Positions 32,101 through 38,100 of a stretch of DNA of 64,000 bases are shown one piece after another. How positions within the stretch are numbered: position 1 is the stretch's first letter; every line of letters starts with the position of its first letter. Position numbers and translations under genes: made by a program. Origin of the DNA: Eledone cirrhosa (taxonomy: Eukaryota); the NCBI GenBank assembly GCA_964016885.1, contig OZ024744.1, positions 12,586,001 through 12,650,000 of the forward strand. Reading direction: 5' to 3'. The notes below the pieces were generated by a model. That model was not told where the DNA came from. It ran no database searches and worked only from the letters and a program-made list of their open reading frames with translations.

Positions 32101-35100
32101 CTGGCCTGGATACGTCGTCGTAGCAACTCAATGGTGTTCTGCATGTGACTTGAACTTAGAGAACTACCAGACTTAACATCGTTATTGAGAAACTGGAGAC
32201 CTGCAATCCACTGCGCCCATAGATAAGGCCGACCTGTACTGCTGATGTGGCTTGAAAAATCTCCAAGACTAAAGAAAAACAAAATAAAAACAGATTAAAA
32301 ATCATCAACATCTAATTTCCATCTTCTGTGCATAGCAAGGTTTAGATGGGTTTTCATAGACCAAATCAGGACTACTGACCTCTTTGATGGGGGCCTACAT
32401 CTCACACATGTTTACAATGTCTCAAGGACTGCAAACATTATCTTGGACTAGAAAACACCTCTATTTCACTCCTAGAACTATAGGTGGCTACTGTAGTCTG
32501 TGTTCAGTTTGCTGAGTTTGGGAAGGTGGGTGGTTCGCATTCAGTTTGCCAAATATGGTGAGTGGATTACTAGTTGGTTTCAGCAGGAATCACAAGTGCA
32601 GATTGGTGTTCAGTTTGGGGTGTTTGCTCAGTGTTTTTTGGACAGATTGGAGCAATAACGGTCTCACTTATGTATATAATAAATGTTATATCTTCTATAG
32701 TAAGTTAATTTAGTAGTATTCACAGACAGAATGAGTACTCAAATGGAGCTACTGACTTTTCAGATGGGCTTGGAGGCTTTCATTTTGCTTATATATGTTC
32801 TTACACTTTACCAAGTGAATTTTATTGTGGCTCCAACACAAGAGCTGAAGATTTCTCTCAACCCTTTGCACATTTTTTATGGCTGCATACCCTTTTTATC
32901 ACAAAGCATTCTAAAAAGTGTACTGGGTGTTTATCATGTAGATCCCCAACACTAGGGAGGTTGTCATGTTTTTGACACAACAAAAGTCTTCCCAACCTTT
33001 TGCTTGGCTTGTTTTTTTATGGTTGCATGCCCTTCCTATCACCAACCACTTTACAAAGTATACTGGGTATATTTATCACATAGATCACAAATATTAGAGA
33101 GATTGTCGTGATTTAACAGAAGAGTCCTCCTGACCCTTTGTTTGGCAACTATGGCTGGATGCCCCTCCTACCATCAACCCTTGGACAAAGTGTACTGAGT
33201 GTTTATAAAGTGGTTTAAAAAAACAACAAAAAACAACAACAAATGTGATAATTAGAAATTATTCTAAATGTAAAAATATCAAGGAATTTAAACAGGATCT
33301 ACTGCTGACAGTATGGTCGGGAGTTCAAATTTCATTAAAGCTATTGTATCTTTGTGTTGGGTACAACACTTACATAGTTTATTTTCTATTGTCCACTTCA
33401 GCACATACACAAACTCTGGTGGAAGTTTAACAGGTTAGCTCTGATTGAGTAAACCCCAATATTGCTGCTGTTTAGACCAAAATCAACCCTAATTGACAAG
33501 ATTGGTTATCAAAGGTGTTTAATCAGTGATCATTCCATCATTCTTTATAGTATATCTAGAACTACAACATTCTCTATCACATCATGTCCCACACATCCTT
33601 TAGACAGTATGGTGTGTGATTTAAGGAAGATCTGGCTGCTATTTCTAACACATCACATGGTCATGTACAGCCTCCCCCTCCTTGGCTTGACACATTAAAT
33701 GTCTGCTGGAGGGGGGGGGGGGATGAAGGAGAAGTTAAAAAGTCGCTCCACATGTAAAGAGTTCTCTATTTTATCCATTCAGCTACTCTCCTTTACTCAA
33801 TTTCTCTCTCTCTCTCCCTCTTAATATATATATATACAAGTGGAAGCTTAGTAAAATCGAATCTTTGGCCAAGCAAATCGACCTAGAATTAGGAATGAAC
33901 AGCAAAGCACTCAATAAGGTAGGTCCTTAGAGTAATAACATACGTTTAAATAGCTTGACAAATTGAAAATTGCAGCAGGTAAACCCAGCCATACAATGCC
34001 AAAAACAACAAAGAAACTAATCAGGTTAAATATCATCATCATCATCATCATCATCACCGTTTAACGTCCGTGTTCCACGCTTGCATGGGTTTGGACGGGG
34101 GTAGTCCCACTTGAGGCAAGAGTGATTGTCTTGCTCGCATAGGACTGTCTGGCAGGTTTTCTACAGTTGGATGCCCTTCCTAACACCAACCACATTTACA
34201 GTGTGGGTCTGGGAGGTTTTTACCGTGTTGCCTACACGGCCACATTACAGCGTGGACTGTGTGTTTTTTTGTCGTGACACCTACACGATCTCATTTGTTT
34301 CGGCCTGGATGGTGTGGCACCAACACAACTTTACATAGAACGGGGTGGTGGGACGGGGGGGGGGGGGGGGGGTATTTTGTTAGATGCCTACTGGCTGTAG
34401 TAGGTTTTACTATGTATTTAGGTAAGGCGGGTCTTCTCGTTACTGAGTACCGCCAAAGGTCTCGGTCCAGTGACATTGTCTTGGAGAGGTGTAAGTGTGT
34501 GATGTCGGAGTTTATCAGCTCGTCCCACGTTTTTCTAGGTCTGCCTATTCCGTGGCTACCGTCTATCTTTATTGCCCTGCACTTTGTTATACAGCTATCG
34601 ACTTTCATGCGCATCACGTGTCCATACCAACGTAGCCTTCTCTCGAGTAAACAACATCTGATCCCTCTTATTTCTAATTTTTTCCTTAGTTCGTTTATGC
34701 TTTGCCGTTCACGTATATTACTGTTACACATCCAGCGGAGCATGCAAGCTTCGTTCCTCTCTAGTCTGCGTATATCCTCTGCACACAATGCCCAGGTCTC
34801 ACTGCCATGCAACATTGCTGTTCGTATGCAGGCATCGTACAACCTGCCTTTCATTTTATATATATATATATTTAAGAGTTAAACAAGATTCAATGAATAC
34901 ATCAAAGAATGAGTTTTACAATAGATTTGAAGCACTCTACATTTTATTTTCCAGAGTTATTAATATTAATTCAAAATATTAACAAAATAGATATTCTTGT
35001 GATCAATTATATTTTATTATACATATTTCAGAGGTACTGAGTTAAGTACAAGAGTACGTCCTCATCAGATAAAATAAAATGATACATGACATACCCTGAC

Positions 35101-38100
35101 AAACCATCTACCATGTCAGGGTAGGTCATGTATCATTTTATTTTATCTGATGAGGACGTACTGTTGAACTTAATTCAGTACCTCTGAAATATGTATAATA
35201 AAATATAATTGATCACAAGAATATCTATTTTGTTAATATTTTGAATTAATATATATATATATATAGAGAGAGAGAGAGAGAGAGAGAGAGAGAGAGAGAG
35301 AGAGAGAGAGAGAGAGAGAGAGAGAGAGAGAGAGAGAGAGAGAGAGAGAGAGAGAGAGAGAGAGAGAGAGAGAGATTAACTGTTGATGATGATAAGTGAT
35401 ATCATCACCAATTAGCATATATTTTCCATAATTGCATGTTTTAAATGGGTCGTCATGTTATGGGGACAGACAGGTCAGGTGACCATGTTTACAGCAAACC
35501 TTCTCTTTTTTGGCATGATTTCTACAGCTTGGTGACCATTGTACAGAGTGTACTGGGTGTATTATATGACACCAACACTACCACTTTACAGAGTGTACTG
35601 GGTGTATTTTATGACACCAACACTACTACTTTACAGAGTGTACTGGGTGTATTTTATCATGACACCATCGCTACCACTTTACAGAGTGTACTGGGTGTAT
35701 TTTATCATAAAACCATCACTACATCTTTACAGAGTGTACTGGGTGTATTGTATCATGGCACCATCACTACCACTTTACAGAGTGTACTAAGTGTATTATA
35801 TCATGACATCAACACTACCACTTTACAGAGTGTACTGGGTGTATTATATCATGACACCAACACTACCACTTTACAGAGTATACTGGGTGTATTATATCAT
35901 GACACTAACACCACCACTTTACAGAGTGTACTGGGTGTATTATATCGTGATATCAACACTACCACTTTACAGAGTGTACTGGGCGTATTTTATCATGACA
36001 CCATCACTACCACTTTACAGAGTGTACTGGGTGTATTATATCATGACACCAACACTGCCACTTTACAGTGTACTGGGTGTATTTTATTGACACCAACACT
36101 ACCACTTTACAGAGTGTACTGGGTGTATTATATCATAACACCAACACTACCACTTTAAAGAGTGTACTGGGTGTATTTTATTGACACCAACACTACCACT
36201 TTACAGAGTGCACTGGGTGTATTTTATTATGACACCAACACTACTAACACTTTACAGAGTGTACTGGGTGTATTTTATTGACACCAACATTACCACTTTA
36301 CAGAGTGTACTGGGTGTATTATATCATGACACTAACACTACTTTACAGAGTGTACTGGGTGTATTATATCATGACACCAACACTACCACTTTACAGAATA
36401 TAATGACACCAACACTACCACTTTACAGAGTGTACTGGGTGTATTATATCATAACACCATCACTACCACTTTACAGAGTGTACTGGGTGTATTATAACAT
36501 GACACCAACACTACTTTACAGAGTGTACTGGGTGTATTATATCATGACATCAACACTACCACTTTACAGAGTGTACTGGGTGTATTATATCATGACACCA
36601 ACACTACCACTTTACAGAGTGTACTGGGTGTATTATATCATGACACCAACACTGCCACTTTACAGTGTAGTGGGTGTATTTTATTGACACCAACACTACC
36701 ACTTTACAGAGTGTACTGGGTATATTTTATCATGACACCAACACTACCACTTTAAAGAGTGTACTGGGTGTATTTTATTGACACCAACACTACCACTTTA
36801 CAGAGTGTATTGGGTGTATTTTATTATGACACCAACACTACTAACACTTTACAGAGTGTACTGGGTGTATTTTATTGACACCAACATTACCATTTTACAG
36901 AGTGTACTGGGTGTATATCATGACACTAACACTACTTAACAGAGTATACTGGGTGTATTATATCATAACACCAACACTACCACTTTACAGAGTGTACTGG
37001 GTGTATTATATCATGACACTAACACTACTTTACAGAGTGTACTAGGTGTATTATATCATAACACCATCACTAACACTTTACAGAGTGTACTGGGTGTATT
37101 TTATCATGACACCAACACTACCACTTTACAGAAGTACTGGGTGTATTATATCATGGCACCAACACTACCACTTTACAGAGTGTACTGGGTGTATTATATC
37201 ATGGCACCAACACTACCACTTTACAGTGTACTGGGTGTATTTTATCATGACACCAACACTACCACTTTACAGAGTGTACTGGGTGTATTTTATCATGACA
37301 CCAACACTACCACTTTACAGAGTGTACTGGGTGTATTTTATCATGGTACCATCACTACCACTTTACAGAGTGTACTGGGTGTAGTCTATCATGACACCAA
37401 CACTACCACTTTACAGAGTGTACTGGGTGTATTTTATCATGACACCAACACTACCACTTTACAGAGAATGTACTGGGTGTATTTTATCATGACACCAACA
37501 CTACCACTTTACAGAGTGTACTGGGTGTATTTTATCATGACACCAACACTACCACTTTACAGAGTTACTAGGTGTATTATATCATGACACCAACACTACC
37601 ACTTTACAGAGTGTACTGGGTGTATTATATCATAACACCATCACTACCACTTTACAGAGTGTACTGGGTGTATTTTATCATGACACCAACACTACCACTT
37701 TACAGAAGTACTGGGTGTATTATATCATGGCACCAACACTACCACTTTACAGAGTGTACTGGGTGTATTTTATCATGGTACCATCACTACCACTTTACAG
37801 TGTACTGGGTGTATTATATCATGGCACCAACACTACCACTTTACAGAGTGTACTGGGTGTATTTTATCATGACACCAACACTACCACTTTACAGAGTGTA
37901 CTGGGTGTATTTTATCATGACACCAACACTACCACTTTACAGTGTACTGGGTGTATTATATCATGGCACCAACACTACCACTTTACAGAGTGTACTGGGT
38001 GTATTTTATCATGACACCAACACTACCACTTTACAGAGTGTACTGGGTGTATTTTATCATGACACCAACACTACCACTTTACAGAGTTACTGGGTGTATT

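Follow-up and report, generated by a model that had tools for sequence, protein, structure and literature searches.

A palindromic hammerhead insertion in a THOC5 intron of Eledone cirrhosa, probably made by two-ended copying of a Penelope-like element

Background

The locus described here raises the question of how a near-perfect palindrome with a hammerhead ribozyme motif in each arm came to lie in an intron of THOC5, and whether it serves that gene. It is part of a 64,000-nucleotide stretch of Eledone cirrhosa DNA (assembly GCA_964016885.1, contig OZ024744.1, positions 12,586,001 to 12,650,000 of the forward strand), called the window below; positions are counted from its first letter. An initial annotation described two back-to-back hammerheads and proposed that the hairpin formed by the transcript cages the ribozyme, possibly as a conditional cleavage switch. 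The locus can be assigned with high confidence to a Hydra-clade Penelope-like element, inserted head-to-head and 5'-truncated over 380 bp; it was likely made by two-ended copying of the ribozyme-bearing front of the element RNA and is likely neutral. The observation is already explained in kind, as hammerhead motif pairs on opposite strands, 100-700 bp apart, were reported in PMC4209133, and the head-to-head form with a single tail in PMC3846280 and PMC8557442. How Penelope-like elements insert was named as an open task in PMC8557442, and the family offers a large natural data set on this step, in which the copy ends map a pair of start sites and a sharply defined, promoter-like 5' end, with the ribozyme cut left unused.

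Structure of the insertion

The inverted arms occupy 34963-35101 and 35114-35252 and are, as first described, reverse complements of 139 nt each with four mismatches (35041/35174, 35048/35167, 35052/35163 and 35091/35124) and 12 nt between them. The arm pairing does not extend outward beyond 34963 or 35252. The full insertion unit is larger than the arms alone; it spans 34873-35252 (380 bp), is bounded by (TA)n on both sides, and includes 90 nt (34873-34962) by which the left arm continues past the end of the pseudo-long terminal repeat (pLTR). Mapped on a natural copy of the element, the unit consists of an inverted arm (-138 to 0, plus its 90-nt tail) and a direct arm (-150 to 0) that meet at a blunt junction. 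The supposed 12-nt spacer thus has the length given for it, but is ordinary element sequence, namely the excess length of the direct arm. It is also true that no arm mismatch falls in the hammerhead core, but this is the chance expectation (P = 0.67). One loop mismatch between the two arms is a polymorphism of the element family. The features of the locus are listed below.

32269..40047, minus strand: THOC5 intron (7.8 kb) hosting the insertion, with 2.6 kb to the 3' splice site and 4.8 kb to the 5' splice site
34857..34871, no strand: (TA)n target tract on the left side
34873..34962, minus strand: 90-nt tail, present in the left arm only, which corresponds to the first stretch of the element body (+1 to +92, counted from the pLTR end); in long copies the same stretch leads into the reverse transcriptase (RT)-endonuclease body (locus L031)
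34934..34957, minus strand: predicted hairpin with a bulge, starting within the tail at about 5 nt from the pLTR end, with a loop (about 34941-34946) that is hypervariable among copies
34963..35101, minus strand: inverted pLTR end, element positions -138 to 0, sense in THOC5 pre-mRNA
35010..35076, minus strand: type I hammerhead motif of the left arm, CUGAUGA at 35068-35062, predicted cut after 35018, last stem II pair lost through a private change
35102..35113, plus strand: apparent spacer, direct-arm positions -150 to -139, with the blunt head-to-head junction at 35101/35102
35114..35252, plus strand: direct pLTR end (-138 to 0), without tail
35139..35205, plus strand: type I hammerhead motif of the right arm, CUGAUGA at 35147-35153, GAAA at 35186-35189, self-complementary AUAUGUAU at 35189-35196, predicted cut after 35197
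35253..35375, no strand: (TA)n target tract on the right side, followed by (GA)55

Insertion geometry across the family

The arm is a high-copy repeat: a 31-mer taken from it has 2152 exact matches and a 29-mer has 4230 (reversed-pattern control, 0). The first 100 listed matches of the 31-mer (contig C1) gave an unselected sample of 86 loci, or 80 after removal of 6 duplicate partners. Divergent inverted pairs are present at 42 of these 80 loci, in agreement with the earlier suggestion that the inverted arrangement is typical of the element. In 38 of the 42 pairs one arm is tailed and ends at the tail end, while the other is tail-less and ends at the pLTR end (P = 3e-8); L127 (maybe two separate insertions) and L144 (deleted tail) were kept as short/short pairs and so count against this pattern. 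No close convergent pairs were seen among the 100 matches listed, and two convergent neighbours were found in the loci. The hammerhead region is carried in both arms at 18 of the 80 loci, of which 10 have less than 100 nt between the arms and 11 have both cores intact; 10 of the 80 loci have a layout near-identical to that of the window palindrome. Because inverted pairs are frequent in unselected loci, the window palindrome is a usual product of its family. The two arms of one locus share their source, with 11 of 232 diagnostic sites discordant as compared to 42% in shuffled pairs.

The 5' ends of the arms are concentrated at one site. Of 73 arms reaching -175 to -161, 30 stop there, versus 48 of 1072 in the other bins, and exact starts number 580 copies at -169 and 166 at -168. 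At -169, which is 169 nt before the pLTR end, stands the A of a TCACT, with TATAAA 31 nt upstream; the same TATA/TCACT pair is described for the pLTR promoter in PMC3846280. Truncation at the hammerhead cut was found in only 2 of 109 arms, without a pile-up. In the natural copy of the window family, both points at which arms end lie in UA-rich patches, and a bulged hairpin follows each of them within a few bases. Head-to-head palindromes, an optional tail on one inverted pLTR and TATA plus TCACT in the pLTR are features in common with the Penelope insertions of Adineta vaga (PMC3846280).

Element family

The proposal that the arms are Penelope-like pLTRs was upheld by the long copies, in which an RT (YRDD box) and then a GIY-YIG-type endonuclease (VY..YIG domain) lie between arm copies and form an EN+ (endonuclease-bearing) body (loci L031 and L041-L060). 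Pfam returned nothing significant for two open reading frame pieces, and the names RT and endonuclease rest on motifs. Among 20 long loci, DKT is present in 16 and DKG in none, CxCx5C in 19, CxxC in 16 (plus one YxxC) and CxH in 19. A single Cys lies between VY and YIG in 13 of the 20, where the box is readable, and no Cys pair occurs within the GIY-YIG box. RWR, a conservative variant, stands at the place of the N-terminal RWK in 12 of the 20. The unit measures 2.96 kb in L031, which has an internal deletion, and about 4.0 kb from one tandem copy to the next (L044 and L043), which exceeds the typical size published. A (TA)4+ tract lies within 20 nt at 74 of the 83 arm 3' ends of paired loci.

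The Hydra clade is described as having a C-terminal endonuclease without CCHH, CxxC and CxH around conserved E and N residues, DKT for DKG, a CxCX5C linker, a (TA)n preference and a size of <3 kb (PMC8557442). The window family resembles the C-terminal EN+ elements of this clade, including Hydra-1_Obim of Octopus bimaculoides (Craig et al. 2021, PMC8557442), in the order of RT and endonuclease, the DKT, CxCX5C, CxxC and CxH motifs, the lack of a Cys pair between the GIY and YIG boxes, the (TA)n targets, the pLTR hammerhead, the inverted 5'-truncated copy and the one-ended tail. It differs in having RWR instead of RWK and a tail of about 90 nt, as against the 30-40 bp quoted there. These motifs point to a high-copy Hydra-clade Penelope-like retrotransposon. 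The Naiad clade, which has an N-terminal endonuclease and lacks a canonical hammerhead, was rejected, as the endonuclease is C-terminal to the RT and a hammerhead is present. A non-LTR retrozyme was also rejected: the locus is a single inverted pair from a coding element and not a set of tandem non-coding hammerhead monomers. The metazoan non-LTR retrozymes (bioRxiv 10.64898/2026.07.22.740005; PMC7229834) share the type I hammerhead and the link to Penelope-like pLTRs, whereas the window insertion is a truncated piece of a coding element and contains no tandem hammerhead array.

Other elements occur near the copies. Frame pieces of other Penelope-like RTs or endonucleases stand beside copies of the window family at L031:8618-9499 (-), L032:5884-6483 (-) and L035:8553-9320 (+). 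The same (TA)n tracts also harbour other families with hammerheads, in many cases nested (L005, L014, L030, L061, L063, L071, L072, L083, L107, L118 and L134), and the head-to-head form is also seen in such families at L005, L071, L072, L083 and L107. One sister family has at least 8621 tail matches.

Hammerhead motif

Each arm contains the type I layout first described, with stem I, CUGAUGA, a long stem II, GAAA, stem III and an AUA triplet, but stem II is not built as claimed. It consists of 3 bp, an unpaired C opposite C, and 6 bp (5 bp in the left arm), and its first pair is G-U, not G-C. In the right arm (plus strand) stem I is formed by 35139-35146/35198-35205 and stem II by 35154-35163/35176-35185, and the AUA triplet ends at 35197; the left arm mirrors this motif on the minus strand. 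The Rfam hammerhead models gave no match up to E = 10 in 33000-37000, and the hammerhead call therefore rests on layout and covariation. The latter was assessed in an alignment of the two window arms with 13 motifs of other families, picked by a core-and-stem scan. The core is invariant in 15/15 motifs, 98.1% of cells are paired (96.7-100% across the stems) and there are 25 double changes, a result reached in 0/500 shuffles under a control that ignores relatedness. The self-complementary stem III also held up, its palindrome being kept across families through A-U to G-C changes. The first stem II pair is A-U in 11 and G-U in 4 of the 15 motifs, and G10.1-C11.1 was not found among them. An unpaired C opposite C or U is kept at the fourth place of stem II in 15/15 motifs from several families (window 35157 and 35182), possibly as a tertiary contact.

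Helix III is predicted at +4.7 kcal/mol as a hairpin and, weakly favourable, at -2.2 as a duplex; these values would be in line with the dimer model and low activity reported in PMC4209133. The predicted active fold has -2.0 kcal/mol in the THOC5-sense arm versus -5.8 in the other arm. Comparable hammerhead motifs show poor cleavage or need protein for it (PMC4209133, PMC11167929). The motifs of PMC4209133 share with the present ones the type I layout, the long helix II and the short palindromic helix III suited to dimers; those of the window family differ in that stem II opens with purine-U and not with G10.1-C11.1 and that stem I is 8 bp of A/U only. The 2-bp palindromic helix III and the long stem II with its conserved unpaired C are unlike the Hydra-1_oBim motif listed in PMC8557442 and the Hydra rows there with a 3-4 bp stem III.

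Subfamily polymorphisms affect four sites in loop II and none in the core. Among inserted copies, rare variants fall in the hammerhead core (13/1177) at a rate similar to that in the flanks (54/4944). Selection on source elements probably keeps the hammerhead, but once a copy is inserted, its core erodes at the same pace as its flanks.

Some copies depart from the usual form. At L116 a 3-nt deletion of the hammerhead core is common to both arms, and a source with a dead ribozyme was therefore probably still copied. At L126:1667-2593, a tailed and a tail-less arm flank about ten tandem 92-nt units of the element stretch -166..-83, each of which has CUGAUGA but lacks the GAAA half. At L097:1161 (+) and L138:2594 (+) another hammerhead type was seen, with a longer non-palindromic helix III and an additional U after CUGAUGA.

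Host intron

The location within a THOC5 intron was confirmed by minus-strand exons at 40149-40048 and 32268-~32070 with GT..AG borders; the query exon is 98-100% identical to Octopus proteins, Octopus being closest. Cleavage after 35197 had been proposed as the site to test, but it lies on the strand opposite to THOC5. As THOC5 is on the minus strand, the pre-mRNA carries the left-arm motif, with its broken last stem II pair and its site after 35018. The expectation that a hairpin buries the ribozyme core in intronic RNA is borne out by folding, which predicts one long fold of -225.8 kcal/mol with a pairing probability of 1.0, the active fold having only -2.0. This predicted hairpin supports passive caging as a by-product.

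A conditional cleavage switch, or caging as the reason why the motif is tolerated, is not supported: hammerhead regions in both arms are common in unselected loci (18/80, above), the core is not spared, and the uncaged monomer is predicted to be unstable. With core decay like that of the flanks and no mark of selection on the THOC5 copy, there is no sign of a host switch. Over their 139 nt, the window arms have 1 and 2 rare variants, which is the norm of the family (median 0.9%) and marks a very young copy. In the THOC5 intron the insertion is likely a passenger, neutral for the host; as a host switch the palindrome, one of many alike, is of no importance. The suggested action of ADAR or Dicer on the hairpin is plausible but generic. 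Octopus showed the highest hyper-editing signal among 19 species, with palindromic repeats heavily edited (PMC5625713), and by analogy ADAR would likely edit the hairpin in the THOC5 intron; intronic palindromes of such elements likely add to the very high A-to-I editing load of octopus RNA.

Proposed insertion mechanism and alternatives

The element RNA would start at the TATA/initiator-like (Inr-like) site at -169. The template is likely RNA uncut by its own ribozyme, because 5' ends pile up at that site and not at the hammerhead cut. The enzyme would copy the ribozyme-bearing RNA front onto both ends of a break in the (TA)n tract. One DNA end would prime at the end of the tail and its counterpart at that of the pLTR, in both cases at a UA-rich patch preceding a bulged hairpin. 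Both copies would run toward the RNA 5' end and be joined there at their far ends. The hammerhead may work as a dimer or with the protein of the element, and its burial in a long intronic hairpin would be a by-product. A related enzyme was reported to use uncut RNA as its main substrate in vitro and to cut and extend both strands (PMC11167929). The two-start-site model fits this behaviour of Poseidon_Ac, in which two internal start sites define the tail; unlike its non-homologous start (PMC11167929), both start sites of the window family have a UA-rich patch that matches the (TA)n target.

Several points weigh against this reading. The clade placement comes from motifs, and all 30 long loci scanned were broken, with no intact open reading frame. 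The shuffle control of the covariation test leaves relatedness aside, and the BLAST-derived ends are approximate. The window arms differ at the family-polymorphic site -78, which could mean two templates. The pile-up at -169 could be an RT stop instead of a transcription start. A G before -169 was seen by eye in 25 of the first 100 matches listed, several of them explained by the opposite arm and with a search pattern that excluded T at -171, and does not establish a cap-derived G. Furthermore, palindrome centres can be deleted after insertion, which blurs the junction evidence.

The palindrome could also be formed by fold-back, the reading given in PMC3846280: priming takes place at a single end, after which the new strand, or an antisense RNA, folds back and serves as its own template. 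Such self-priming agrees with the common source of the arms, which sometimes share rare variants (L092, L116, L133 and L144), and with several junctions that are palindromic around -169. However, 10 of 42 tailed arms end short of the pLTR end and have no sequence in common with the other arm; in 27 of 38 pairs, as also in the window, it is the short arm that extends further 5'; and the tailed arm holds 90 nt absent from the short arm. Barring a later deletion of the centre, neither arm can therefore have been copied simply from the other, and fold-back is considered improbable. Somewhat less probable again is a retrozyme-like route with ribozyme-cut or circular RNA as template. A circle model was proposed in PMC4209133, the hammerhead is conserved and covaries across families, and 7 of 31 long tailed arms run beyond -300. 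Against it, the few arm ends at the cut site (2/109) contrast with the 30/73 at -169, which is upstream of the ribozyme and is an end that a circle does not have; moreover, the family has its own RT-endonuclease body and no tandem array of hammerhead monomers.

A host-adopted caged ribozyme, restrained by the hairpin until editing, a helicase or splicing opens it and then tuning THOC5 pre-mRNA by cleavage, is very unlikely. The insertion does lie within a THOC5 intron with both cores intact, the hairpin is predicted to be very stable, and RNA editing is likely here given the hyper-editing of octopus (PMC5625713). The youth of the copy argues against adoption, as do the family-wide decay of the core and the presence of two intact cores at 11/80 unselected loci. 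In addition, the THOC5-sense arm is the more damaged of the two by predicted active fold, and editing of many A residues would be expected to destroy CUGAUGA and GAAA instead of freeing the ribozyme.

Hypervariable loop in the tail hairpin

The loop of the first tail hairpin (34941-34946) is distinct in 41 of 43 unselected tails, with a pairwise distance of 0.42-0.45 per nt versus 0.01-0.15 in adjoining windows. Its variable middle measures 2-7 nt and is nearly all A or T in one subfamily. The same scatter is seen in the first 100 of 1510 genome-wide tail matches. Within each of the single insertions L085 and L095, both arms are tailed, and their loops differ even though rare flank variants are common to both arms. 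Run X1, a contig run of unrecorded kind that may be the source of the assembly, has a depth of about 1,300 at 34941-34946 versus 183,894 at 34928. For comparison, 129 copies show 24 forms of hammerhead loop II. The second hairpin hardly varies among 9 internal copies chosen by likeness to its motif; an exact pattern for this hairpin matched at only 3 places. In the sister family one loop sequence is found by eye in about 67 of the first 100 matches listed, 99 of which are of equal length.

The variable loop likely reflects error-prone copying at a stall, being likely miscopied at each insertion; alternatives are many diverged sources or repair of a self-cut. That the loop is rewritten in nearly every RT pass, most probably as the tail-end enzyme reads through a hairpin gripped by its partner starting at the pLTR end, is offered tentatively, as somewhat doubtful. 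The family-specific nature of the hypervariability counts against complete rewriting, as does a loop that recurs in one subfamily among the first 100 of 1510 tail matches and is thus in part inherited. If the proposal is true, each insertion bears a 3-6 nt A/T-rich scar that records a two-enzyme, two-ended mechanism and serves as a natural barcode of single retrotransposition events; a loop made at each copying would be a directly testable mark of the enzyme stall at the start-site hairpin. No such loop was met for Adineta vaga or Poseidon_Ac in the excerpts of PMC3846280 and PMC11167929. The literature searched, which left most subscription papers outside its scope, contained no published description of a variable Penelope tail loop.

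Other features of the window

A 48-bp minisatellite forms long arrays in both orientations (71-92% complementary) in THOC5 introns, at 21644-24618, 35535-39922 and 42964-43475; these arrays could give rise to far more double-stranded RNA than the palindrome. Directly left of the insertion, an open-frame fragment is found at 34142-34800 on the minus strand, which presumably resembles the C-terminal end of RTE-type long interspersed element (LINE) proteins. Downstream of the last THOC5 exon, positions 1-12000 are taken up by a 12-kb array of a 32-bp unit with strong GC skew.

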